A DNA stretch of 20,810 nucleotides from contig NZ_JBHSTI010000005.1 in the NCBI RefSeq assembly GCF_042660085.1, positions 334 to 21,143 on the forward strand, in the 5' to 3' direction. Under the pieces are notes generated by a model. It saw nothing but the letters and a program-made list of their open reading frames with translations. It ran no database searches and was not told the DNA's origin. Every line of letters begins with the position of its first letter. Within the stretch, counting starts at the first letter, position 1. The position numbers and the translations under genes were made by a program. The DNA is from Longivirga aurantiaca. Its GTDB lineage: Bacteria > Actinomycetota > Actinomycetes > S36-B12 > CAIYMF01. Positions 838-14,395 of the stretch are shown piece by piece.

Positions 838-1632
838 GTGGTCGTGCCGCGCTACCTGACACCTGAGGACGTCATGCCGGAGGACGAGGGGGCGCGAACC
901 GGCCCCGTGGTCAACGTGCACGTGTCACTTAACTTCCCCGAGATGACGGCCCACACCGCGGACCTCATGCGGAAGTCGATCCGCTCGGCGCTGACCGCGC
1001 TCGCTGAGCGCGACGGGGACTGGCGCCTGGTCGACACCTCGGGGGAGCTCCCGGAGCCGCGCGAGTGCCTCGGCGACGGCGTTCTGGTGCTGGGCGGCGG
1101 CGACGTCGACTCGGAGCTCTACGGCGTGCCCGGCCCGGTGCCGCACGAGTTCGGCGTGGACGAGCGTGCGGACCGGTTCACCATCGCGGTTCTGAGGGAG
1201 GCCCTGGGCGCCGAGGTGCCCGTCCTCGCCGTGTGCCGGGGCGCCCAGCTCCTCAACGTGGCGCTGGGGGGCACGCTGGTCCCGCATCTCGACGATTCTC
1301 AGCACCTGCACCGCGGGGCCAGTGCGGACGATCTCTTCGTCGACGAGCACGTGGTCGTCGAGCCGGGGACCAGGCTCGCCGAGCTGTTGGGCCACCGGGA
1401 GTGGACCGTGCGGGCGGCGCACCACCAGGCCGTCGACGTCGTCGCTCCCGAGCTGCGTCTGGCCGCGAGGTCGGTGGACGGCGTGGTGGAGGCGGTGGAG
1501 CACCCGGACAAGTGGGCCTTCGGAATCCAGTGGCACCCGGAGGACGACGACGGCCACGGCCACGACCTCGCCCTGCTCTGGGGCGCCCTGTGCCAGGAGG
1601 CGGGCCGCGCCCGCAACCTGTCGGAGCCGTGA
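838..1632 (+). CDS. Class-I glutamine amidotransferase-like hydrolase (peptidase C26, gamma-glutamyl-GABA hydrolase/PuuD family)
   Basis: Nucleophile Cys context AVCRGAQLLNVALGG, plus HHQAV and GIQWHPE motifs. The first 250 aa of track ORF 79..1632 are Arg/Pro-rich shadow sequence, so I moved the start to GTG 838, which is preceded by GAAGGGA. ATG 874 is an alternative start. Confidence 0.8.
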   Translation: MVVPRYLTPEDVMPEDEGARTGPVVNVHVSLNFPEMTAHTADLMRKSIRSALTALAERDGDWRLVDTSGELPEPRECLGDGVLVLGGGDVDSELYGVPGPVPHEFGVDERADRFTIAVLREALGAEVPVLAVCRGAQLLNVALGGTLVPHLDDSQHLHRGASADDLFVDEHVVVEPGTRLAELLGHREWTVRAAHHQAVDVVAPELRLAARSVDGVVEAVEHPDKWAFGIQWHPEDDDGHGHDLALLWGALCQEAGRARNLSEP

Positions 1633-1791
1633 GCCCGACGGCCCTCCGTCGAGCCGCCCACCCGTCGCCCAACCCAGTTGCGCAGGCCGCACGGTGATCG
1701 TGAGGGCGATCATGGCCAAGGAGCCGGGTGGGCGAGCCGACGCTGCTCGGTCGCTCGGGGGCGCCGTCCTCGGCGCTGAGGCCCCGGCGGG

Positions 1792-2172
1792 TCACGCCTC
1801 GAGGACCGCCCCCATGAGCTCCAGGGTGGCGGGCATGCCGCCGTTGCCCCGCAGGGCCTTCGCGACGTAAGGGACCGGCTCCCTGCCCGCGGGGCTTGTC
1901 GCGGTCTCGGTGGCCAGGACCGCGTCGTACGTGCTCTCGACGCACCTCGCCTCGCTCGAAGTCCCGGGTGGGCCGTCACGGCGAGGGGAAGGCTCCAACC
2001 ACTCGGTGGACACGGTCAGCACGTCGACTACGGCATCCGGCCATGTGCCAGCCGCGGCCACCGTGCCTGGCGGCCTGACCAGCACTGCAGCAGAACACTG
2101 GTCGACGTCCCTCAAGGTCGGCCAGAACAGGTCATTCAGAGGATGGACTGGGGTGTCGAGGAGACTCGTCAT
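1792..2172 (-). CDS. Hypothetical protein (126 aa)
   Basis: Intact ORF with G/C-biased third codon positions. Its ATG at 2172 lies 1 nt after the stop (2174-2176) of the upstream small ORF, suggesting a coupled pair. I recognise no family motif. Confidence 0.5.
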   Translation of the reverse strand: MTSLLDTPVHPLNDLFWPTLRDVDQCSAAVLVRPPGTVAAAGTWPDAVVDVLTVSTEWLEPSPRRDGPPGTSSEARCVESTYDAVLATETATSPAGREPVPYVAKALRGNGGMPATLELMGAVLEA

Positions 2173-2173
2173 G

Positions 2174-2386
2174 TCAACTCTTCATGAGCGGCAGCTGTTG
2201 CGAGCGTCCTCGAAGCTCTGCTGCCGCCCACCGGCCCCAACTGTCCACGAGTGCCGTCGAAACCACGACTCGATGCCATCCAGTGGCGACTTCAAGCGAC
2301 TCTTGGGTGTACTCCTGGCCGGACTTGTACGAGTCGGTCCAGACAAACAGGCGAACGAGAAGGAAGGCCGTGTCGCCACACGGCAC
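2174..2386 (-). CDS. Hypothetical small protein (about 70 aa; start uncertain, alternatives TTG 2440 or GTG 2530)
   Basis: The C-terminal two thirds (VPCGDTAFLLVRLFVWTDSYKSGQEYTQESLEVATGWHRVVV...) look protein-like, while the upstream part of the track ORF is Arg-rich junk. GTG 2386 is preceded by GAGGATACGAGAAG. The stop abuts the next ATG. The DNA here is locally more AT-rich. Confidence 0.35.
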   Translation of the reverse strand: MPCGDTAFLLVRLFVWTDSYKSGQEYTQESLEVATGWHRVVVSTALVDSWGRWAAAELRGRSQQLPLMKS

Positions 2387-2699
2387 CTTCTCGTATCCTC
2401 GAGCCCCTCCGGAAACGCCACGGTCCTCGCAACTCCTCAAATCGAGGTGTTGCGAGGACCGCGTGAACCCGTCTCGAGGTCGGGGCCGTCGTCGTTCGTC
2501 GGGCTTCCTGTCCCGCTGTTCTCGGCTCACCCGAACGAGGCCGTCGCCAGGCGATGCCGCGTGCGGAGGCCGAGCTGCGTCGGGCCCTCCACCCGGGTGC
2601 TTCCGCCTCTGCGCTCAGGAGCGGAGCGAGCCCGACGGGTCGACGTGTCGTCCCGCGGCGCTTCGGGCGCCGGCGCTGCGTCTCGGGCGTTATCATCCG

Positions 2700-2713
2700 A
2701 TCAATCGATTGAT
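2700..2713. promoter_or_regulatory. Perfect 14-bp palindrome ATCAATCGATTGAT, candidate TetR operator
   Basis: The sequence equals its own reverse complement. It lies 43-56 nt upstream of the TetR ATG (2756) in an AT-rich patch (TTATCATCCGATCAATCGATTGATTGATTGC) of an otherwise GC-rich region. Confidence 0.5.
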
Positions 2714-2755
2714 TGATTGCTGGTGAGGGGTCTGGGCGGGAGGAGGCACGGCGGG

Positions 2756-3412
2756 ATGAAGTCCGACGACGTGCTCCGGGCCGCGGTGCTGCTGTTCGCG
2801 CGACAGGGTTACGCCGCGACGGGTATCCGTGAGATCGCGCGTGAGGTCGGCCTGAACTCCGCGACGCTATACCACTACGCGAACGGCAATGAGGGGCTGC
2901 TCGTCGCCGTCATGCAGAGCTGCCTCGACGAGCTCCTCCGCTCGACCGACGAGGCCCTCCGTCACAGCGACGACCCGCAGGTGCAGCTCGGGCGGCTGAT
3001 CCGGGCCCATGTCGGGCTCTCGGCCCTCAACCCGCTGTCCTCCCGTGTGACGGATCAGGCGTTCCGTTCCTTGGGGCCTGCCAACCGCGCATCGCTGCTG
3101 GTGCTGCGGGACAGCTACGAGTCGCAGCTGGGTGCCGTGATCGATGCCGGCGCCCGAGCCGGTCTCTTCGATGTCGCCGACCCTCGGCTCACCCGGCTGG
3201 CGATCCTTGAGATGTGCAACGGCGTCGCGAACTGGTACCGCCAGGCCGGCCGCCTGCCGATGCGGGCCGTGCAGATGCAGTTCGTCGACTTTGGCTGCCG
3301 CCTCGTCGGTGCGCCGGTGATGGACGAGGCGGAGCTGGGCCCCGTGCAGACGCCGCACCTACTTCGCTGCGAGCCGTACGCCTCACCCGACACGATGGAG
3401 GACCTAGGTTGA
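2756..3412 (+). CDS. TetR/AcrR family transcriptional regulator
   Basis: N-terminal HTH signature LRAAVLLFARQGYAATGIREIAREVGLNSATLYHYA. ATG 2756 is preceded by GGGAGGAGG. The track start TTG 2717 only adds a Gly/Arg-rich leader. Confidence 0.9.
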   Translation: MKSDDVLRAAVLLFARQGYAATGIREIAREVGLNSATLYHYANGNEGLLVAVMQSCLDELLRSTDEALRHSDDPQVQLGRLIRAHVGLSALNPLSSRVTDQAFRSLGPANRASLLVLRDSYESQLGAVIDAGARAGLFDVADPRLTRLAILEMCNGVANWYRQAGRLPMRAVQMQFVDFGCRLVGAPVMDEAELGPVQTPHLLRCEPYASPDTMEDLG

Positions 3413-4290
3413 ACATCACCGATGCGCGCGTCCGACTCCCGCAGGACCGACGGACCAGTGCGAGCTACTCGGCTCCGGCCCGGCAGACGGAGCAGTACGA
3501 CCGCGTCCTCGGGCTGACCGACAAGATGAACGGCGGCACGCTGTCCGGCCTGCTGAAGGAGATGGACGCCGTCGGCATCAGCCGCGCCGTGATGCATGCC
3601 GAGTCCGAAGGGGGCGAGGACGCCGATGCGCTCAACACCGCTCTGCGCTCCGTGCTCGACGAGCACCCCGACCGGTTCTTGGGCGTGGGCTGCGTCGACG
3701 TGACCCTGTCATCGCCGACCGCGATCGCGGCGCAGGCCGCGCGCGCGCAGGACCTCGGGCTGCTGGGGGTGTCGTTCCAGCCTGCATTCTTCGGCCTCGA
3801 CATCGACGACCGCCGTCTCTACCCGCTCTACTCCAGGGCGGAGGAGATCGGCCTCGTCGTCGCCGTCCACACGGGGATCAACTACAGCCGCCTGCACCCG
3901 ATCAAGCACGAGCGCGCGGAGAACCTCGATCAGGTCGCCTGCGACTTTCCCGACCTGCGGCTCATCGCCTGCCACGCGGGCTGGCCCTGGGTGACCGAGT
4001 TCGCGGCTGTTGCGCGGCGCCATCCGACGGTCTTCCTCGAGTACGGCGCCATCGCACCCAAGTACGTCGCGAGGCCTGGCACGGGTTGGGATGTCCAGTT
4101 CGCCATGATGGCTAACGTCCTTCGGGATCAGGTGCTCTACGGGAGCGATTGGCCGATGATCAGCCCGAGCCGGGCCGTGCAGGAATGGCGGGACTCCGGT
4201 CTGCCGGACGCGGCGCTGGAGGCGCTGCTCTCGCGCAACGCCGAGCGGCTCTTCGGTCTTGAGGGCGGCGGCGTGGGACTGCCGACGTGA
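3409..4290 (+). CDS. Amidohydrolase-2 family (PF04909-like metal-dependent hydrolase/decarboxylase)
   Basis: Motifs VAVHTG, IACHAGWPW and LYGSDWPM. TTG 3409 overlaps the TetR stop (TTGA) and follows GGAGGA at a 7-nt spacing. The upstream part of track ORF 3214.. overlaps TetR in another frame and looks like shadow sequence. Confidence 0.85.
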   Translation: MNITDARVRLPQDRRTSASYSAPARQTEQYDRVLGLTDKMNGGTLSGLLKEMDAVGISRAVMHAESEGGEDADALNTALRSVLDEHPDRFLGVGCVDVTLSSPTAIAAQAARAQDLGLLGVSFQPAFFGLDIDDRRLYPLYSRAEEIGLVVAVHTGINYSRLHPIKHERAENLDQVACDFPDLRLIACHAGWPWVTEFAAVARRHPTVFLEYGAIAPKYVARPGTGWDVQFAMMANVLRDQVLYGSDWPMISPSRAVQEWRDSGLPDAALEALLSRNAERLFGLEGGGVGLPT

Positions 4291-5807
4291 CCCTGACCCT
4301 GTCCTCGCAGCTCCGTACGGCAGCGGAGGACTCCCCGGACAGGGTGTTCATCCGAACCATGGGCGAGGAGCTCACCTACGCCGAGACGTGGACCCGCGTG
4401 CGGGTGCGCGCCGGGCAGCTCCGGGAGGCCGGGATCCGGCGCGGGGACTCCGTGGCAGTCGTAATGGACAACAGCGCCGATCAGATCGTGATCTGGTTCG
4501 CCCTGAATGCACTGGGTGCCCTGCATGCAGCGCTCAACACCGCGTTCACCGACGCACGGCTGGCGCACAACCTCAGGGTCTCGAAGGCATCGTGGGTGCT
4601 GGCCGACGACCAGTACCTGGCAGACGTCCAGCGCGGCATCGGGACCCATGAGTTGCCCGCGCGTGTGATCCCCTCGAGTGCCGTCGGCTCGCTGCCGGGG
4701 GCACCGGTGGACGAGGCGGAGCAGGTCGACGACCTGGCCACGGCCACCCTTCTGTTCACCTCGGGCACCACGGGCGCGTCGAAGGCGTGCGCCCTGTCCA
4801 ACCGCTACCTGGTCCGGGCCGGCCAGCTGCACGTGACGTACCTTGGGCTGACGTCCGACGACGTCCTCTACAGCCCCTTCCCTCTCTTCCACATAGACGC
4901 GGCGACCCTCACGGTGTCGGCCGCCCTGGTGGCCCGAGCGACCGCGGCGATCGGGCTGCGGTTCAGCGCCTCACGGTTCTGGGACGAGGTGCGGGCCATG
5001 GACGCCACCGTCTTCAACTTCATGGGCGCCACGCTGACGATCCTGTGGAAGCGCGACCCCGACCCGCGCGACAGCGACCATCGGGTCCGGCTCGCCTGGG
5101 GCGTGCCGATCCCCGAGTGGAAGGCCGAGTTCGAGCACCGGTTCGGGTTCCCGCTGTTCCAGGTCTACGGGCTGACCGATGGAGGACTTCCCGCCTACGA
5201 CCCCATCGACGGCTCGCAGCGGCCGGGGTTCGCCGGGCGCGTGATCCCCGAGTACGAGGTGCGCATCGACACCGCCGCGCGACGGCACGGCGACCCCGAG
5301 GGCGTGGGCGAGATCCTCATGCGCTCCCGGGAGCCGGGTCTGATGATGAACGGGTACTTCGGGGACCCCGCAGCGACCGAGAAGGCGATCGTGGACGGGT
5401 GGCTGCGTACGGGCGACCTCGGGCTGCTCGATGGTGACGGCTATCTGGCCTTCCACGGTCGTCTGACGGACTCTATCCGCCGTCGAGGCGAGAACATCTC
5501 CGCCTTCGAGGTCGAAGAGCTCGTCGGATCCCACCCGGACGTGGTCGAGGTCGCCGCGGTCGGTGTGCCCAGCGACCTGACCGAGGAGGACGTGCAGGTG
5601 TGGGTCGTTGCGCGCCAGGGCAGCGGACTCACGGCCGAGACCCTCCACCGCGATCTGGCCGAACGTGGTCCCCGCTACCTCGTTCCCCGCTACTACGCGT
5701 TCGTTCCGGCCCTCCCGAAGACGCCGACGGAGAAGGTGGAGAAGTTCGAGCTGCGGTCGGCGGGCACGAGCACGTCGTGGGACTCCGAGGCCACCAGCGG
5801 CGACTAG
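4287..5807 (+). CDS. AMP-dependent synthetase/ligase (acyl-CoA synthetase, CaiC-like)
   Basis: AMP-binding motif LLFTSGTTGASKA, and GDLG..DGDGYLAFHGRLTDSIRRRGENIS. GTG 4287 overlaps the amidohydrolase stop (GTGA). Confidence 0.9.
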   Translation: MTLTLSSQLRTAAEDSPDRVFIRTMGEELTYAETWTRVRVRAGQLREAGIRRGDSVAVVMDNSADQIVIWFALNALGALHAALNTAFTDARLAHNLRVSKASWVLADDQYLADVQRGIGTHELPARVIPSSAVGSLPGAPVDEAEQVDDLATATLLFTSGTTGASKACALSNRYLVRAGQLHVTYLGLTSDDVLYSPFPLFHIDAATLTVSAALVARATAAIGLRFSASRFWDEVRAMDATVFNFMGATLTILWKRDPDPRDSDHRVRLAWGVPIPEWKAEFEHRFGFPLFQVYGLTDGGLPAYDPIDGSQRPGFAGRVIPEYEVRIDTAARRHGDPEGVGEILMRSREPGLMMNGYFGDPAATEKAIVDGWLRTGDLGLLDGDGYLAFHGRLTDSIRRRGENISAFEVEELVGSHPDVVEVAAVGVPSDLTEEDVQVWVVARQGSGLTAETLHRDLAERGPRYLVPRYYAFVPALPKTPTEKVEKFELRSAGTSTSWDSEATSGD

Positions 5808-5938
5808 CCTCGATCTTTCGCGCGGGGTCTGATCTGGTGGCGTGACACGGGTCTTGAAAGCACGGAAGTGCCTGTCCTGGTTGGGAAACTACTGATTGTC
5901 AAGGTCAGCAAGTTCCCAGCGAGGAAGGCACTCCGTAG

Positions 5939-6229
5939 GTGAAGAATAGCCGCCGGGTCGTCCCGGTCATCATGGACCCGTCGAACGAGTCGCTGATCTC
6001 CTCCGCGGGTGGGTCGCTGTTGCTGGCCACAGCTCGGGCGACCGGCCTGGATCGGGCGCTGTCAGCGGGGTTGGCTCCGTGGCGGGTACCGCGGGCGGTC
6101 CACGACCCGGGCAAGGTGATCCTTGATCTCGCGGTCGCGTTGGCCCTGGGCGGGGACTGTCTCGCGGATGTCGCGGCCCTGCGTGCCCAGCCGACACTCT
6201 TCGGTGCGGTCGCCTCGGATCCGACGGTG
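5939..6229 (+). pseudogene. IS1380-family transposase, N-terminal ~97 codons only (truncated remnant)
   Basis: SLISSAGGSLLLATARATGLDRALSAGLAPWRVPRAVHDPGKVILDLAVALALGGDCLADVAALRAQPTLFGAVASDPTV matches my recollection of the conserved N-terminus of actinobacterial IS1380-type transposases. The similarity stops near 6229 and no DDE domain follows in any frame. Confidence 0.6.
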
Positions 6230-6620
6230 TTGAACCACCCTGGGTTGCTTGGAGGCTCCATCAAACCCAGGGAGGTTCACCGAGGCCGGTCCGACGGCCC
6301 TGGGACCGGTGGCGAAGGACGCCACGTGCATCGAGACACTGCGCGCAAGCCCATCCCTGTCCCCCGCGGCATCAGGTTCTGGTGACGGGCTCGAAGCCAC
6401 GACCCCGGTCACGCGCCCGGCACCGCCAATCACATGCCCACCCGCGTCCTGCACGCCGCCACCGACCAATACCCAGGAGCGTCAGCCGTTCGCCCGCGCG
6501 TGGACCGCGTGGGCTCCCCTTGGGCTAAGCCATGGCCACAAGGGGCCAAACAAGGCCAGCAGAGGGCAAGAGGCTGTTGGGTGAAATTCCCGGAACCCCT
6601 ACAGGACATGGAATCTGTGG

Positions 6621-6663
6621 GGAGCGGGTGACGGGAATCGAACCCGCACTGTCAGCTTGGGAA
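6621..6663 (-). other. 3' fragment of tRNA-Gly(CCC), anticodon loop to acceptor end; att-type remnant, not a functional tRNA
   Basis: The minus-strand sequence reads TTCCCAA GCTGA CAGT GCGGG TTCGATT CCCGT CACCCGC T CC. This gives an anticodon loop with CCC, a 4-nt variable loop, a T-arm, an acceptor 3' strand and the Gly-typical U73 discriminator. The sequence 5' of the loop (GCAAG) cannot pair with GCTGA, and there is no D-arm or 5' acceptor strand. Confidence 0.65.
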
Positions 6664-8741: not shown

Positions 8742-8855
8742 ATGGCTGACGATCAGGGGCAGAGAGGCTCGGTCCTCGGCAATGGTCGGGTTCCGAAGAC
8801 CCCGCCTCCTCCCAAGGCAACGCCTCCCAGCAAGCCAAGCGGTAGCAAGTCCTAA
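8742..8855 (+). CDS. Mini-ORF 2 (37 aa) MADDQGQRGSVLGNGRVPKTPPPPKATPPSKPSGSKS
   Basis: ATG 8742 has AGGAG 11 nt upstream. It is in the same frame as mini-ORF 1, separated only by TGA plus two codons. It carries the conserved core GRVPKTPPPPK. Confidence 0.35.
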   Translation: MADDQGQRGSVLGNGRVPKTPPPPKATPPSKPSGSKS

Positions 8856-8874: not shown

Positions 8875-8991
8875 GTGGGAAAGAAGGTGACGGGAGGCGC
8901 CGTCACTGGCAAGGGCGGCGTGCCCAGCAATCCGCCCCCGAAGGCGGGCGACAAGGGAGCTGGGTCCAGGAAGCCGCCGCACGGGGCTTAG
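8875..8991 (+). CDS. Mini-ORF 3 (38 aa; alternative GTG 8887) VGKKVTGGAVTGKGGVPSNPPPKAGDKGAGSRKPPHGA
   Basis: Third copy of the core (GGVPSNPPPK), in a different frame from copies 1 and 2. It forms the C-terminal part of track ORF 8713..8991, whose N-terminal part is Arg-rich shadow sequence. It overlaps the antisense tail of the integrase ORF. Confidence 0.3.
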   Translation: MGKKVTGGAVTGKGGVPSNPPPKAGDKGAGSRKPPHGA

Positions 8992-10525
8992 CCAAAGCAG
9001 GACGGGCCGCGATCCTGGTCACTCGTCCCCGTCTCGTCCCCCAGCAACGATCATGGGTTGACACGAGAGGGCCCATTGGCGCTCGCATCGGGCTGTTCTG
9101 GTACATCCGCGCAAGCGTGACGCCTGCCTGCGACGCCCTCGTAATGCGTAGGTCATCGGTTCGATTCCGATAGGCGGCTCCATCTTCAAGTCTCTGACCT
9201 GCGGCGATGCTGTCGGGGTCACCCTCGGGATCGTCGTCTGAGGGCGAGTTGCTCACATGTTGCTCACGGACTCGCTGGGATGCGTCGTCTGCGCGCGGCA
9301 CGAGGGACCACGCCTTGGCAGCTGCTTCGCTTCCGACGCCGGGCAGCAGGTGGGTGTAGGTGTCCGAGGTGATGGCCACGGAGGAGTGTCCGAGCCGCTT
9401 GCTGACCACGACGATGTCGACGCCGGCGGCGAGCATGAGCGAGGCCTGGCCGTGGCGCAGGTCGTGCAGTCGGATGCGTCGTAGCCCGATCTCTTCGGCG
9501 AGTTCCTGGAAGCGGTCGGAGAGCCGGTCGGGGTGCAGGGGTACGCCGTCGGGCCGGGGGAACACGAGGTCGTGGTCGTTGTAGGCGTCGCCGAGCGGCG
9601 CGCGGGCGGCGTCCTGGCGCAGGCGGTGGGCGAGCAGCACGCCGACCGTGTGCGGGTCGAGGTCGACGACGCGGTCCTCTCCGCTGGCGGTCTTCGGTCG
9701 CCCGAATGCGATGCGCCCGTGGTCGGCGCCGCACTGCGCGCACGGGCGGGAGAAGCGCGCGGTGAGGGTGACGACCTGCTGGCGTACGTGGAGCCGGTTG
9801 CGTTCGAGGTCGACGTCGGACCAGCGCAGCCCGGCCGCCTCTCCGCGGCGTAGACCGGTGGCGGCCAGGAGCTGGAACGCGGGCCCGAGCGGGTCGTGGT
9901 CGGCGTGGTCGAGGAACCGGCCGAGCTCCTCGGGCTCCCACGGGCGCACGCGCGGACGCGGCACCGACGGCAGGTCGATGTTCGCGGCCGGGTTCGTGGG
10001 GATCAGGCGCGACTTCACCGCCGAGCCCAGCGCCGAGCGGAGCGAGGCGTGCACGCGGCGCAGGGTGGCTGGCTTCATCTGACGGTCGGCCTGGATGGAG
10101 CGCAGGGCGCTCTCGACGTCGTGGGGGCTCAGGTCGCGCAGGCGCACGTGCCCGATGCGGGGGATGAAGTACTGATGCACGTGCGCGGTGTACGTCGCGG
10201 CGGTGGTGGGCCGGACGCCGTCGGCGACCTTGCCGGCCAGCCAGTCGAGCAGGAACTGCCCGACGGTGATGCTGTTGACCGCGACGCCGACGCCGCGGGA
10301 GCCGGCGTCGATCACCTCGGCGAGCGCCTTCTCCGCGTCCTTCTTGGTCGCGAACCCGAACCGGGTGAGCTGACGGCGCGCGACGTGCTCGCCGTCCGGG
10401 TTCGGTCCCGGCCCGAGGTCGACGGTGTAGCCCCAGGACCCGTGCTTCTCGGAGCAGGCCTTGCGCCGGCCGCGTGAGTCGAAGACGGCGGGGCACTGGC
10501 AGCGCTTGCGAACGGTTCCGCGCAT
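8903..10525 (-). CDS. int: Tyrosine recombinase / phage-type integrase (ORF runs to the first stop; the last ~130 codons cross the tRNA-Thr fragment and look non-native)
   Basis: N-terminal Cys/His arm-type domain (KRCQCP...CSEKHGSWGYTVDLG). Catalytic residues in context: GLRRGEAAGLRW, HDLRHGQASL, LGHSSVAITSDTYTHL. ATG 10525 is preceded by GAGGGAGGA. Confidence 0.9.
   Translation of the reverse strand: MRGTVRKRCQCPAVFDSRGRRKACSEKHGSWGYTVDLGPGPNPDGEHVARRQLTRFGFATKKDAEKALAEVIDAGSRGVGVAVNSITVGQFLLDWLAGKVADGVRPTTAATYTAHVHQYFIPRIGHVRLRDLSPHDVESALRSIQADRQMKPATLRRVHASLRSALGSAVKSRLIPTNPAANIDLPSVPRPRVRPWEPEELGRFLDHADHDPLGPAFQLLAATGLRRGEAAGLRWSDVDLERNRLHVRQQVVTLTARFSRPCAQCGADHGRIAFGRPKTASGEDRVVDLDPHTVGVLLAHRLRQDAARAPLGDAYNDHDLVFPRPDGVPLHPDRLSDRFQELAEEIGLRRIRLHDLRHGQASLMLAAGVDIVVVSKRLGHSSVAITSDTYTHLLPGVGSEAAAKAWSLVPRADDASQRVREQHVSNSPSDDDPEGDPDSIAAGQRLEDGAAYRNRTDDLRITRASQAGVTLARMYQNSPMRAPMGPLVSTHDRCWGTRRGRVTRIAARPALAKPRAAASWTQLPCRPPSGADCWARRPCQ
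9138..9182 (+). other. 3' fragment of tRNA-Thr(CGT), anticodon loop to CCA; att-type core next to the integrase gene
   Basis: The plus strand reads CTCGTAA TGCGT AGGTC ATCGG TTCGATT CCGAT AGGCGGC T CCA. Upstream there is no GCCGCCT acceptor 5' strand and no D-arm, and the 5' anticodon-stem strand ACGCC pairs at only 4 of 5 positions. Confidence 0.6.
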
Positions 10526-10547: not shown

Positions 10548-10811
10548 CTACTGCGATACCGGACCGGCGACGGTTGCGCCAGCGCTGGGCGGTGAGCCTG
10601 CGGACGACACGCCGGCGCTGTCCGAGTCGTCGACGAGGCGTAGCAACGCAGCGGTGGGGATCCGGATGAGCTTGCCGACGCGCAGGACCGTGGTGGGCCA
10701 CAGGTCGGCTTTGACGAGCTCGTAGGCCAGGGTGCGTCCGATGCCCAGCACGCGCGCGGCTGTGGGCAGGTCGACCAGGGGTGGGAGCTGCTCTATCTCG
10801 GTGCGGTTCAC
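10548..10811 (-). CDS. xis: Excisionase-family helix-turn-helix DNA-binding protein
   Basis: LVDLPTAARVLGIGRTLAYELVKADLWPTTVLRVGKLIRIPTAALLRLV is the typical MerR-like excisionase HTH. GTG 10811 is preceded by AGGAGA at a 5-nt spacing. It ends 22 nt upstream of int. Confidence 0.8.
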   Translation of the reverse strand: MNRTEIEQLPPLVDLPTAARVLGIGRTLAYELVKADLWPTTVLRVGKLIRIPTAALLRLVDDSDSAGVSSAGSPPSAGATVAGPVSQ

Positions 10812-10942
10812 GGGGATCTCCTGACTGTCCGTTGCCCCGCGGCAGCGGTGGCACGACAAGGTGCGCACCGAAGGGCACCGACACGCGTCGGACGCAGACG
10901 GCTGCGTCGCCAGCTGCGTTACCTGGCGGTGTCGGTTGCTGG

Positions 10943-11168
10943 GACTCCGTCACGCGACTCCGCCGCCGCCGCGCTGACTGTCATGGACTCCGTCACCGAC
11001 TCCGTCACGGACTCCGTCACCGGGTGGGGGCCGTCCTCCGACTCCGTCACGGCGCTGACGGCGGTGCCAGCGCTGTCACGGAGTCCGTCATTGACTCCGT
11101 TACGGCGCCGAGGTTGGTGCCCGGGCTGTCGTGGAGTCCGTCACCGACTCCGTCACCGACTCCGTCAC
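10943..11168 (+). repeat. Iteron array: 11-bp motif GACTCCGTCAC, 7 perfect and 3 one-mismatch copies, all in one orientation
   Basis: Perfect copies start at 10943, 10986, 10998, 11010, 11040, 11146 and 11158. One-mismatch variants start at 11081 (GAGTCCGTCAT), 11093 (GACTCCGTTAC) and 11134 (GAGTCCGTCAC). A degenerate copy lies at 10956. Two triplets (10986/10998/11010 and 11134/11146/11158) and one pair (11081/11093) are in 12-bp phase. Confidence 0.9.
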
Positions 11169-11338
11169 GTGTCACTGGGCTCCCTCACGTTGAAGGCCCC
11201 GACCCCAGCCCCCGGCATCGAGGACGCGCCTCCCTGGTCCGGCGAGCCCTTCAGCACGGCGTGTCGTCCACAGCCGGTGGTGCGGCGCTGACGCCGGGCT
11301 TCTTCGCCAACTGTGACCCTGGCTAGCTGGAGGTGAGG

Positions 11339-11701
11339 ATGGTCGACGTCGACGATGGGGGAAGCCGCGCGCGGGCGGCGCTGGAGTGCGCGTTGGTGGG
11401 CCTTCTGGCCGATCTGCGCCAGCACTGGCGCGACCACGCCGTGTCCCTCGGTGTCATCGGCGCCACAGAGCGTATGAGCGCGATCCTGCGCGCTCCGAGC
11501 TCGGGGAAGGTAGGCCACGGCGCGCTCTCCGGCGGGCCGGCCGAGCGCTTGGTGTCGGCGCGTGCCGCGGTGGTCTTCCTCGTCGACAACGCCGAAGCCT
11601 TGGACCTGTCAGCTGAACTGCTCCTGCTGCTTGCCCGGGCGGCGCACGCGCTCTCGGCGGCCGAACGTGTGCTGCTCCCCGGCTCCTGGGAAGCACGCTG
11701 A
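11339..11701 (+). CDS. Hypothetical protein (120 aa), predicted helical
   Basis: ATG 11339 is preceded by GGAGGTGAGG. Third codon positions are strongly G/C-biased throughout. I recognise no motif. It is divergent from xis-int across the iteron region. Confidence 0.55.
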
Positions 11702-11774
11702 CGGACGTACGACGACCCCGCCGGAATGAGGGGTATCCAGATGCCAGCGCGTGCGGTGGTTCAGGTCTTGCTCG

Positions 11775-11785
11775 TGACGGAGTCG
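11775..11785 (-). repeat. Isolated inverted copy of the iteron (GTGACGGAGTC)
   Basis: It is the exact reverse complement of GACTCCGTCAC and lies 74 nt downstream of the 11339..11701 ORF, so that gene sits between the direct array and one inverted copy. Confidence 0.55.
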
Positions 11786-12219
11786 CCGACCGTCGCTGTC
11801 AGCGTCGCGGCTGGGTTCCTGTCGCCGGCATGGTGCACCGCGACCGCGCGGGGTCAGCTGACGATCCGGGTTCGTGTCGTGCCGGGTTGTCACATCACGT
11901 GCTGCCTGGTTCGGGCGCGAAAGTGCCTGTTGTGAATGCGGAATCGGATGATGACGGCCGTCCGCTCCTTGGAGCCAGAGGAGTGGCTGGCGGTGACGGG
12001 ATCGACGCGTCAGCCGATCGGCGCTGCGCGTTGTTGGTCGGGGAGACTCGGTACCTCGTCGTCGACGCGACTGAGCCTCAACGACTCACCGGGACAACGC
12101 CGCGTCCGGCGTTCGGGCTGCTCACCAGCCGCTCGGGTGCACGAGCCGTATGGCGTCATCGCCCGCTGACCGCCGGGCTCAAAGGGAGCGAGGTACACCC
12201 GGTCAGTAGCGTCAACGCC

Positions 12220-13332
12220 ATGTCTGCCGACCACCTTGCCGACCTGTCCGCCGCCGGAGTCTCGATCTGGCTCGACGACCTCGACCGCAGCCGCCTGTCG
12301 GGCGGCGGTCTGGCCGCCCTCGTCGCGGGGTCGCACGTCGTCGGTGTGACGACGAACCCGTCCATCTTCGAGAAGGCGATCGTCTCGGGCGCCGCGGCGT
12401 ACGCCGACCAAGTGCACGACCTCGCGATCCGCGGCGTCGACCTGGGCGAGGCGGTGCGGGCGATGACGACGTACGACGTGCGCTGGGCCTGCGACGTTCT
12501 GGCACCGGTGTACGAGCACTCGGGCGGTGTCGACGGCCGGGTGAGCATCGAGGTCGACCCGCGGCTGTCCGCCGACACCGAGGCCACGGTGGCCGAGGCC
12601 AAGGCGCTGCACTGGTCGGTCGACCGTCCCAACCTGCTGGTGAAGATCCCCGCCACCATCGAGGGCCTGCCCGCCATCACCGAGGTGCTCGCGGCCGGCA
12701 TCAGCGTCAACATCACGCTGATCTTCTCGGTCGAGCGCTATCGGGGTGTGCTGGACGCCTGGCTCGCCGGGCTGGAGAAGGCGCAGGCCAACGGCCACGA
12801 CCTCGCGACCATCGAGTCGGTGGCGTCGTTCTTCGTCAGCCGCGTCGACTCCGAGGTCGACAAGCGCCTCGGACCCGACTCCCCGCTGTGCGGCACCGCC
12901 GCCATCGCCAACGCGCGCATCGCGCACGAGGCGTTCGCCCAGGTGATCGCCTCGGACCGGTGGACGGCGCTGGCCGCGGCCGGGGCGCACGTGCAGCGAC
13001 CGCTGTGGGCCTCGACCGGGGTCAAGGACCCGGCGTACTCCGACACCCGCTACGTCATCGACCTCGTCACCGCCGACACCGTCAACACGATGCCCGAGGC
13101 GACCCTGGACGCCGTGCGCGACCACGGCGCGGTGCAGGGCGACACCGTGGTGCCCGAGTACGCCGCGGCCCACGCCGCGCTCGACGCGCTGACCGCCGCC
13201 GGGATCGACCTCGACGACGTCTTGCAGGTGCTCGAGGACGAGGGCGTCGACAAGTTCGTCCAGTCGTGGAACCAGCTCCTCGAGGCCGTCACCACCGCGC
13301 TCGCCGAGGCGCGCGCGGCTGCAGGGCGCTGA
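12220..13332 (+). CDS. tal: Transaldolase
   Basis: [33 protein letters not shown] and LLVKIPAT (active-site Lys context). At 370 aa it matches actinobacterial Tal length. The track ORF start at 11830 is an unsupported N-terminal extension. Confidence 0.92.
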
Positions 13333-13369
13333 GCCCTGACTGCACGCTGCGCTGATTCAAGGAGAATCT

Positions 13370-14395
13370 ATGGCTCTACGGCTCGGTTACAAGGCGTCCG
13401 CGGAGCAGTTCGGCCCTCGCGACCTCGTCGAGTTCGCCGTCCTGGCCGAGCAGGTGGGCCTCGACAGCGTCGTGACCTCCGACCACTTCCTGCCCTGGCG
13501 CGAGACCGGCGGGCACGCGCCCTTCGCCCTCGCGTGGATGGCGGCCGTGGCCGAGCGCACCGAGCGGGTGATCATCGGCACGAGCGTGCTGACGCCGACG
13601 TTCCGCTACAACCCCGCGGTCATCGCGCAGGCGTTCGCGACGATGGCGCTGCTGGCGCCCGACCGCATCATGCTCGGCGTCGGCACGGGCGAGGCCCTCA
13701 ACGAGATCGCGGTGTCGGGCCGCGAGTGGCCGGAGTTCAAGGAGCGCTCGGCCCGCCTGCGCGAGGCGATCGACCTCATGCGCCAGCTCTGGACCGAGAG
13801 CCACGTCGACTTCCGCGGCGAGCACTACACGACCGTCGGCGCGAAGATCTACGACAAGCCGGCCGAGGCCCTCCCCATCTACATCGCGGCGGGCGGGCCG
13901 CAGATGGCCAAGTACGCCGGCCGCGCCGGCGACGGCTTCATCTGCACCTCGGGCAAGGGCATGGACCTCTACACCGAGCAGCTCATGCCGGCGCTGCACG
14001 AGGGCGCGACCTCGGTCGGCCGCACGGTCGACGACCTCGACCGCATGATCGAGATCAAGATCTCCTACGACCGCGACGCGTGGTCGGCCCTCGAGAACAC
14101 GCGCTTCTGGGCACCGCTGTCGCTCACCGCCGAGCAGAAGCACGACGTGTCGTCGGCCGAGGAGATGGAGTGGCTGGCCGACCAGCTCCCCATCGAGCAA
14201 GTCGCGAAGCGCTGGATCGTCAGCAGCGACCCCGACGAGACCGTGGCGATGATCAAGCCGTACATCGACGCCGGCCTCAACCACCTCGTGTTCCACGGCC
14301 CCGGCCACGACCAGGCCCGGTTCCTGCACCAGATGGCAGAGGACGTCATCCCGAGGCTTCGCGCGATGGAGGCCCCACCTCGTCGGCCGGCCTAG
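13370..14395 (+). CDS. fgd: F420-dependent glucose-6-phosphate dehydrogenase (luciferase-like monooxygenase fold)
   Basis: [42 protein letters not shown]...[10 protein letters not shown]...[27 protein letters not shown] is the characteristic Fgd1 sequence. RBS AAGGAGA lies upstream of the ATG. Confidence 0.9.

Follow-up and report, generated by a model that had tools for sequence, protein, structure and literature searches.

The closest described counterparts of the locus presented here come from conjugative systems. At the oriT of pED208, TraM tetramers contact palindromic GANTC motifs placed 12 bp apart and bridge to the coupling protein (PMC3159463), and the name iOriTs has been given to relaxase-less islands that have nothing but an oriT in common with their helpers (bioRxiv 10.64898/2026.01.13.699239). 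Both the iOriTs and the SXT-dependent mobilizable genomic islands resemble our island in being tRNA-integrated, in carrying int together with an RDF-like gene, in lacking relaxase and mating-pore genes, and in sharing essentially only a short non-coding block beside the helper's relaxase gene (here with an element on contig C29 of the same genome). The movement of relaxase-less genomic islands is a current open question. Short repeats in one orientation beside a xis-type gene are also found in the X1-X1.5-X2 sites of lambda Xis, in the P2 Cox boxes and in the sites of 186 Apl and L5 Xis, where they show one-face phasing and lie in a divergent promoter region, as they do here. Same-face phasing is typical of Xis/Cox filaments, and dual-function RDFs such as 186 Apl and P2 Cox repress their own promoter and bend DNA for excision. 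In Streptomyces, the clt loci are cis-acting short direct repeats, sometimes overlapping coding sequence, that consist of 8-bp TraB recognition sequences. To our knowledge, almost nothing is known about the oriT regions and relaxosome accessory factors of T4SS-type elements in Actinomycetota.

The window, by which we mean the whole stretch of 20,810 nucleotides that was analysed, belongs to contig C5 of a 3.67-Mb, 71-contig assembly. It holds what would be a small, tRNA-integrated island with int and xis, in which an att-type tRNA site accompanies the integrase gene and no relaxase or mating-pore (MPF) genes were found in the window. Its features, in window coordinates, are as follows.

9130-9182, plus strand: 3' fragment (53 nt) of a tRNA-Thr(CGT), from the anticodon loop to the CCA-proximal end, read directly; an att-type junction adjoining int
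8903-10525, minus strand: tyrosine integrase ORF (Pfam Phage_integrase, 2.9e-23; Phage_int_M; Arm-DNA-bind_4; SAM_3)
10548-10811, minus strand: gene for a Xis-like HTH_17 protein of the excisionase family (Pfam HTH_17; weak match to the NCBIfam excise domain)
10943-11188, plus strand: array of 12 GA(C/G)TCCGTCAC boxes, in 12-bp phase within clusters and with about 53 bp between clusters
11189-11332, plus strand: promoter-like leader of orf122, conserved in six loci; its promoter role is putative
11339-11701, plus strand: orf122 (120 aa from its ATG), with coding bias, for an orphan protein predicted to form four helices (AF2 model)
11774-11784, minus strand: single exact inverted box, at the same place in every homologous locus
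11785-11961, no strand: non-coding conserved stretch of ~180 bp separating the inverted box from the dyad, from an alignment of the window with loci L001, L015, L053, L020, L024 and L060; no Rfam match
11962-11986, plus strand: dyad block CCGCTCCTTGGAGCCAGAGGAGTGG, a candidate oriT core, identical to part of the C29 relaxase leader; homology to related loci stops here

The tRNA fragment is 98% identical to the 3' part of an intact tRNA-Thr on contig C3 (C3:26817-26893), and ARAGORN found no whole tRNA in the window. The integrase frame remains open across this fragment, and the native C-terminus of the enzyme probably lies near 9290. Alignment with homologues suggests that xis likely starts with the GTG at 10811-10809, which is preceded by AGGAG. 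The product of orf122, which has no Pfam, PHROG or NCBIfam match, is restricted to 19 protein clusters in 5.8 billion sequences, all of them at least 71% identical, and its AF2 model (pLDDT 71) consists of four helices. Beyond the dyad lie genes for a transaldolase and then an F420-type dehydrogenase. A second copy of the tRNA-Thr 3' end was found neither in the window, nor on C3, nor in the 8-kb loci; among the homologues only that of G034, a near-complete relative, is delimited, being bounded by a tRNA-Ser and a 25-bp repeat. This G034 island is 17.5 kb long and IS-ridden, and has no relaxase or T4SS gene. In the window copy the tRNA is present as a fragment only, the int frame runs through that fragment and the putative oriT is devoid of its distal ~95 bp; this copy of the island may be a remnant.

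The array consists of 12 copies of an 11-bp box, all on the plus strand: seven are exact copies of GACTCCGTCAC (starting at 10943, 10986, 10998, 11010, 11040, 11146 and 11158), two have one mismatch (11093 and 11134) and three have two (10956, 11081 and 11178). The original prediction of a dense same-orientation array, with two triplets and one pair at 12-bp spacing, was borne out, since the triplets 10986/10998/11010 and 11134/11146/11158 and the pair 11081/11093 are in exact 12-bp phase. A further box with one mismatch lies on the reverse strand within the array region, at 11075-11085. The exact inverted copy that had been placed beyond orf122 also exists, with its coordinates shifted by one (11774-11784, not 11775-11785). 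Matches with up to two mismatches number 32 in the whole window versus 14.4 +/- 3.9 in shuffled sequence, and none of 100 shuffles reached 32; genome-wide, 27 exact boxes were counted versus about 2.2 expected from base composition, with 17 of the 27 in three clusters. A higher-order period, absent from the original prediction, is superimposed on the 12-bp phase: the anchor boxes 10986, 11040, 11093 and 11146 follow one another every ~53-54 bp, or about five helical turns. The same geometry recurs across 18 arrays, in which the most frequent same-strand spacings are 12 bp (51 pairs), 53 bp (31) and 106 bp (19). The consensus of 135 sites reads G-A-(C/G)-T-C-C-G-T-C-A-C, nearly invariant except at position 3, and can be described as a palindromic GANTC core followed by CGTCAC.

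This lattice of 11-bp DNA boxes is real and conserved. When six loci organized like the window (type A, see below) were aligned, box columns were 94.5% identical versus 58.8% for spacer columns, and the box starts occupy all three reading frames (10943 mod 3 = 2, 10986 = 0, 11134 = 1); judged from these comparisons, the array is under selection as DNA. The two ORFs that span it have neither a Pfam match nor coding bias and the boxes fall in three frames, so the array is not a repeat protein, and a peptide repeat, which the original prediction had named as a finding that would undo it, was rejected on these grounds as well as on codon usage, which runs contrary to it. A putative multi-site protein-binding platform, non-coding and located on an integrative element, is what the original prediction got right. 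A search against Rfam (E up to 1, window 10600-12400) returned noise only.

To see where else the box occurs, two 12-bp-phased boxes were scanned for in one genome per species, over 185,579 species, which gave 66 loci. The actinobacterial ones, from MAGs labelled Nanopelagicales or Actinomycetota, come in three settings: (i) type A, with int, xis, array and orf122, as in the window; (ii) type B, with int, a xis-like gene, orf127 (a distant homologue of orf122), orf460, the array and then Tad-pilus genes, as on contig C58 of this genome; and (iii) type C, with boxes in MobF relaxase genes, in the linker that joins the TrwC relaxase and AAA_30 helicase domains. Doublet matches in Myxococcales and other non-actinobacterial genomes were set aside, their spacings on one strand being multiples of 6 and giving them the look of coding repeats, and the doublet occurs in two of 2.9 million viral contigs, which gives no link to phages. 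Within this genome, box arrays occupy two other loci, on C3 and C58. The C3 paralogue, a module of xis, array, orf120, inverted box and dyad that adjoins the intact tRNA-Thr, encodes a Xis 66% identical and an orf120 product 78% identical to those of the window, and an integrase only 29% identical. Among 28 genomes of the genus, six carry arrays and one more (G025) a variant, and there are none in 35 genomes from the rest of the family; this patchy distribution disfavours a housekeeping regulon of the host. Homologues of orf122 occur in just three other genomes of the genus, each beside the same array and inverted box; orf122 is missing from two loci, L024 and L060, in which array, inverted box and dyad are all retained. 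The number of boxes per array varies between loci.

Searching the genome and its relatives for the motif, as the original prediction had proposed, led, in addition to the counts given above, to genes for MobF relaxases that contain or adjoin the boxes. The TrwC+AAA_30 relaxase genes with the box in their linkers, 35-59% identical, belong to at least three clades, and in two loci (L032 and L098) a ~300-bp box array lies directly upstream of the relaxase start rather than in the linker. Translated, the linker box reads as DSVT, as LRH (frame 1, in relaxases of the C29 type) or, reversed, as VTES, and the orientations are mixed within one gene. In the relaxases, 16 of 18 DSVT peptides are encoded by exactly GACTCCGTCAC, versus 7 of 30 elsewhere in this genome, a codon choice that points to a constraint on the DNA and not on the peptide. 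G034 has eight box clusters, six in or at MobF relaxase genes, and two in relaxase-less int-xis elements that also have the dyad. In related bacteria the same box is a mark of relaxase genes, on conjugative as well as on mobilizable elements. Our analysis extends the original prediction by the relaxase link, the shared dyad, the element on C29, the tests of frame and codon use, and the finding that the box does not co-vary with Int or Xis.

A relaxase of this kind resides in the genome under study. Its single relaxase, on contig C29, is a MobF enzyme by NCBIfam NF041492 (241 bits versus a cut-off of 100), and the same contig encodes a VirD4-type coupling protein with a TraG-D_C domain, TrbL/VirB6 and ArdC, as well as an MmeI-type enzyme, an Lsr2-like gene and a weak VirB4-like match. 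A relaxase, a coupling protein and mating-pore genes (VirB6-like and weak VirB4-like) are all present, on C29. Among its small ORFs no RHH or TraM/TrwA-like gene was recognised, which need not mean that none is encoded. Some segments of the assembly are near-duplicates: C5 matches C2 at 97.5% identity along one stretch, and tal and fgd recur on C8 as copies with 88% identity, so part of the apparent co-residence of elements could be strain mixture.

What connects the island with C29 is the dyad. Window positions 11962-11986 are identical (25/25) to C29:18206-18230, and 31 of 32 positions match over 11955-11986; the C29 copy sits about 90 bp upstream of the start codon of the MobF relaxase, and the dyad is found in all type A loci. 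In G034 the same block precedes a relaxase 93% identical to that of C29, and there 96 bp, 86% identical, are common to the relaxase leader of the conjugative element and the type A island. The core GACTCNTCTGGCTCC and a CAAGATC box are retained at the same position where the relaxases are only 56-59% identical; in those loci the core lies within 12-20-bp inverted repeats of locus-specific sequence that fold as ssDNA with z of -4 to -6. The window dyad folds as ssDNA into an 8-bp stem of -9.6 kcal/mol with z of -1.5, which is not significant, and a strong hairpin was rejected for this copy; also missing from the window is the distal ~95-bp part of the putative oriT with its CAAGATC box, which relatives keep. 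Identity between C3 and C29 is 92-95% on the far side of the dyad, except for IS110-family insertions bounded by an 11-bp repeat, and on the near side C29 has the relaxase and T4SS genes where C3 has orf120, array, xis and int, so that the dyad marks a module junction. Its position and conservation make the dyad a putative oriT core for relaxases of the C29 clade. A C29-clade relaxase accompanies the array in 6 of 6 array genomes, which are related and not independent samples, and a C29-type coupling protein was matched in 4 of the 6, the exceptions in a strict search of reduced sensitivity being G023 and G026; G010 has both the C29-type relaxase and the coupling protein and no arrays.

None of the proteins encoded by the island tracks the invariant box. 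The integrases of box-bearing elements are 17-41% identical, with N-terminal (arm) domains (17-34%) no better conserved than the rest, and the tRNA genes that these elements target differ (Thr, Ser, Leu, Met and Gly); the HTH_17 Xis-like proteins are of three divergent groups that differ in their recognition helices; and L024, L060 and the relaxase-bearing elements have no orf122. As a binder or accessory protein, the orf122 product was rejected: it has no family match, its four-helix model found no fold match in the PDB, and it shows no similarity to the product of the 125-aa gene downstream of the C29 relaxase. A regulator gene common to all box-bearing elements was not found. Since Int, the Xis-like proteins and orf122 do not follow the box, its binder is probably supplied in trans, from a helper element, as these comparisons suggest and in line with the dependence on a trans factor raised by the original prediction, which had also considered Xis or the orf122 product as the binder, options that are now weakened. 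A trans-acting binder of host origin is less likely.

We read the array as a putative docking lattice within a wider region that would control transfer and excision of a relaxase-less mobilizable island, a tentative reading to which we assign a probability of roughly 0.42; that the array is a protein-docking platform tied to conjugative transfer, and not a replication origin, is the most likely general assignment. The island, small, integrated in a tRNA gene and endowed with int and xis, would bear a copy of the presumed oriT core of the T4SS element on C29. We infer that a sequence-specific DNA-binding protein, encoded not by the island but by the helper or by another member of the guild, coats the 12-bp-phased boxes, which the 53-bp super-period would keep on one face of the helix. 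The resulting nucleoprotein complex would link the nearby putative oriT to the relaxase or coupling protein of the helper, and the same complex would determine how active the divergent xis-int and orf122 promoters on either side are. Several observations weaken this reading: (i) on C29 no RHH or TraM/TrwA-like gene was recognised; (ii) the distance from array to dyad in the window, 0.8-1.0 kb, exceeds that of the accessory sites in F or R388; (iii) the Tad-island arrays (L002, L014 and L045) have no recognisable relaxase or dyad nearby; (iv) the window copy of the putative oriT, truncated at its distal end, may be a decayed remnant; (v) the hairpin of the window dyad is not significant; and (vi) arrays are absent from G010 in spite of its C29-type genes, and G023 and G026 have no coupling-protein match.

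The likeness to the TraM sites of pED208 and F (sbmA-C) extends to the GANTC core (here GA(C/G)TC), the 12-bp phasing and the presence of several clusters near an oriT, which here is putative. In the F-like system the bound protein autoregulates its own synthesis and bridges oriT to the coupling protein, and a TraG-D_C coupling protein exists in this genome. The differences are also considerable: (i) no TraM or RHH homologue was found here; (ii) the box is an asymmetric 11-mer, GASTCCGTCAC, present in up to 12 copies with a 53-bp super-period and 0.8-1 kb from the putative oriT core; and (iii) the host is actinobacterial, the relaxase is a MobF enzyme and boxes also occur inside its coding sequence. 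We therefore see a resemblance in logic and, as no TraM-like protein was found, do not claim membership in the TraM family. With respect to the iOriTs and the SXT-dependent islands, the shared block is 25-32 bp in the window (96 bp in G034), mobilisation is here putative, and there is in addition a box array common to several relaxase clades, which has not been described for those elements. Of the functions first proposed, a transfer site of some kind comes closest, in view of the MobF link and of the putative oriT core 0.8-1.0 kb away; the clt type, in contrast, does not hold. The array shares with Streptomyces clt the arrangement in cis of short direct repeats on an actinobacterial integrative or conjugative element, whereas no TraB is encoded in this genome, PF01580 having its single match in an 875-aa frame on C8 that is the chromosomal FtsK, and the associated machinery is a relaxase with a T4SS, which transfers single-stranded DNA.

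The array is a concrete cis element that has stayed invariant while integrases, excisionases and relaxases diverged to 30-60% identity; it neighbours a candidate oriT common with a co-resident conjugative element, and it also represents DNA-level information within relaxase coding sequence. If the box is read by a protein of the helper, numerous hitchhiking islands would in this way rely on a single conjugation machine, and the box would be a sequence tag with which to detect them in uncultured actinobacteria. A wider form of the docking-lattice reading, which we consider speculative and rather improbable as it stands, is that the GASTCCGTCAC lattice serves as a shared 'address label', read by one helper-encoded or coupling-protein-associated factor. 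Such a label would give elements that are otherwise unrelated access to one type IV secretion system, its users being islands with relaxases of three MobF clades, relaxase-less int-xis islands and a Tad-pilus island, and in many of them it would be written into the inter-domain linker of the relaxase as dual-use coding DNA, in any frame or orientation that fits.

Among the alternatives, a bank of operators with a purely transcriptional function survives best, and we hold it to be doubtful though worth serious attention. It supposes a regulator, repressor or activator, shared by the guild of mobile elements and perhaps derived from one master element, that would control xis-int, orf122, the relaxase operons and the Tad-island genes with no role in DNA processing. 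The position of the array between divergent genes in the window is what such a function would predict, as are the L032 and L098 arrays ahead of the relaxase start and the existence of arrays on elements with no recognisable oriT; in the Tad islands, moreover, the boxes lie directly ahead of genes, with recurring sets of direct and inverted boxes flanking a 48-bp spacer, and look like a promoter-operator. However, most of the G034 clusters lie ~1.2 kb inside the relaxase coding sequence, which is odd for operators unless there is an internal promoter or a roadblock, the elements have no regulator gene in common, and a consensus scan of the region for sigma-70 promoters and for terminators found nothing. 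An operator role at the divergent promoters is possible and compatible with the transfer reading; were the array an operator bank only, it would define a regulon joining excision, relaxase and pilus genes across elements.

Docking of the adjacent Xis-like HTH_17 protein on the array, as a dual-function RDF that would repress its own promoter and bend DNA for excision, is unlikely. The location is suggestive, as the array starts 132 bp upstream of the xis start, i.e. on the promoter side of the predicted RDF gene; the HTH region of Xis is nearly invariant in the type A loci and in L018 and L042; and the phasing on one face is that of Xis/Cox filaments. Yet the same box is found with clearly different HTH_17 proteins, whose recognition helix reads VRFVRRLVA in L002 and L060 and RTTVYALMR in L032 and L039. 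Unlike the lambda, P2, 186 and L5 arrays, this one does not co-vary with the Xis-type protein and is remote from the att core, with 1.8 kb between it and the tRNA core and a position outside the att arm, and its box is also found in relaxase genes and in a pilus island; where an element has a relaxase, its boxes lie within that gene, ~2.3 kb upstream of xis.

A replication origin built from iterons, or a partition centromere of the excised element, which the original prediction had listed, is very improbable. Dense direct repeats would suit it, and the orf122 leader contains a single DnaA-box-like nonamer (TCGTCCACA, 11264-11272; TTGTCCACA in the C3 paralogue), but no Rep, primase, ParA/ParM or ParB/ParR gene was found in the window or in the 17.5-kb G034 homologue; genes for a ParA/ParM NTPase and a centromere-binding protein are missing from the paralogous loci too, the only ParA-like gene being the TadZ-like one of the C58 pilus cluster. 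Iterons are ~17-22 bp long and spaced by ~22 bp, a layout unlike that of 11-bp boxes at 12 and 53 bp; there is no AT-rich unwinding region, GC being ~0.70 throughout, and the same boxes occur inside relaxase genes. We give as little credit to a functionless, slippage-prone minisatellite spread by recombination: the copy number does differ by locus and the tract does sit in tolerant places (linkers and intergenic DNA), but conservation is much higher in box columns than in spacers, the super-period of 53 bp persists, a single inverted box holds a fixed position in all loci, and frame and orientation vary where the sequence does not. Arm-type sites for the N-terminal domain of the integrase are scarcely credible: the Int of the window matches Arm-DNA-bind_4, and the arm sites of lambda and L5 are likewise ~10-11-bp repeats that occur in either orientation and as neighbouring pairs or triplets, but one identical box is found on elements whose integrases and tRNA targets differ as described above, and the array, instead of flanking the att core, stands ~1.8 kb away from it with int and xis in between.

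Contig C29 of the L. aurantiaca assembly represents part of a conjugative element of the T4SS type. Read as two loci (L079, 1-9999, and L078, C29:10000-22995), it encodes DUF6112, TrbL/VirB6 and VirB4-like proteins, together with ArdC/M78 and an Lsr2-like gene, and the following features:

C29 5172-7712, VirD4-type coupling protein
C29 11057-13939, MmeI-family restriction-methylase, 960 aa
C29 14786-18112, minus strand, MobF relaxase

A second clade of MobF relaxases carries a different, strongly conserved block, CAGACATGTGCATTGTCGGCG...AATCGGTTGCGCTGCAACGGATT, about 100 bp upstream of the genes (loci L042, L087, L090, L094-L097 and L100), and the linkers of these relaxases, too, hold GACTCCGTCAC boxes. 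Since its GTGCATTGTC part is similar to the nic region of R388, the block is probably the oriT of this clade. In the relaxase leaders of three genomes (L083 150-290, L084 and L085 4740-4860, from G012, G010 and G033), perfect inverted repeats of 12-20 bp, the sequences of which vary from locus to locus, contain in their loop a ~50-nt conserved core (CAAGATC...GACTCNTCTGGCTCC), and the ssDNA folds of these leaders score z -4 to -6. Because the arms covary between loci, the sequences suggest a structured oriT or 5' leader.

The DNA that flanks the dyad, the 25-bp candidate oriT core of the window, looks like an insertion hot spot. In the paralogous module on C3, a segment of about 3 kb, bordered by the 11-bp direct repeat AGTGGACGCTG, directly follows the dyad block (L001 9518-12580; C3:29518-32580) and contains an IS110-family transposase gene (391 aa) plus a 187-aa fragment; the near-complete relative G034 has an IS21 in the equivalent position. 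In G025, a genome in which only distant relaxases were found, 1.2 kb separate a dyad block from a variant of the 11-bp box array, in which box position 1 is A instead of G:

G025:C19:20997-21087, eight consecutive 12-bp units reading (G/C)AACTCCGTCAC
G025 C19 22261-22281, dyad block

A DnaA-box-like nonamer keeps its position about 70 bp upstream of orf122 in the window and in the C3 paralogue, and a similar nonamer, GTTGTCCCCA, precedes orf127 on C58:

window 11264-11272, DnaA-box-like nonamer TCGTCCACA
L001 ~8786-8794, DnaA-box-like nonamer, a perfect TTGTCCACA

Parts of the window recur elsewhere in the genome. Its left part (1184-6663; C5:1517-6996) matches the start of C2 (C2:1-6273) at 97.5% identity, and its transaldolase and F420-dependent dehydrogenase genes (12229-13336 and 13381-14371) have second copies on C8 that are 88% identical; these near-duplicates are due either to a mixture of strains within the assembly or to recent duplication or cargo. 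A 43-nt 3' fragment of tRNA-Gly(CCC) is present in four copies besides the intact gene on C2, which suggests repeated or tandem integrations at this tRNA gene. On C8 the layout of tRNA-Thr and tRNA-Gly fragments mirrors that of the window:

window 6621-6663, minus strand, tRNA-Gly(CCC) 3' fragment
C58:28401-28443, tRNA-Gly(CCC) 3' fragment
C8:8992-9040 and C8:642271-642305, tRNA-Gly(CCC) 3' fragments
C8 11367-11411, tRNA-Thr 3' fragment, 2.3 kb from a tRNA-Gly fragment

The 11-mer of the box array also occurs in Myxococcales MAG contigs (L010, L027, L040, L041, L043, L046, L050, L051 and L061), in long single-strand runs with spacings that are multiples of 6; these are probably in-frame peptide repeats bearing no relation to the actinobacterial arrays.
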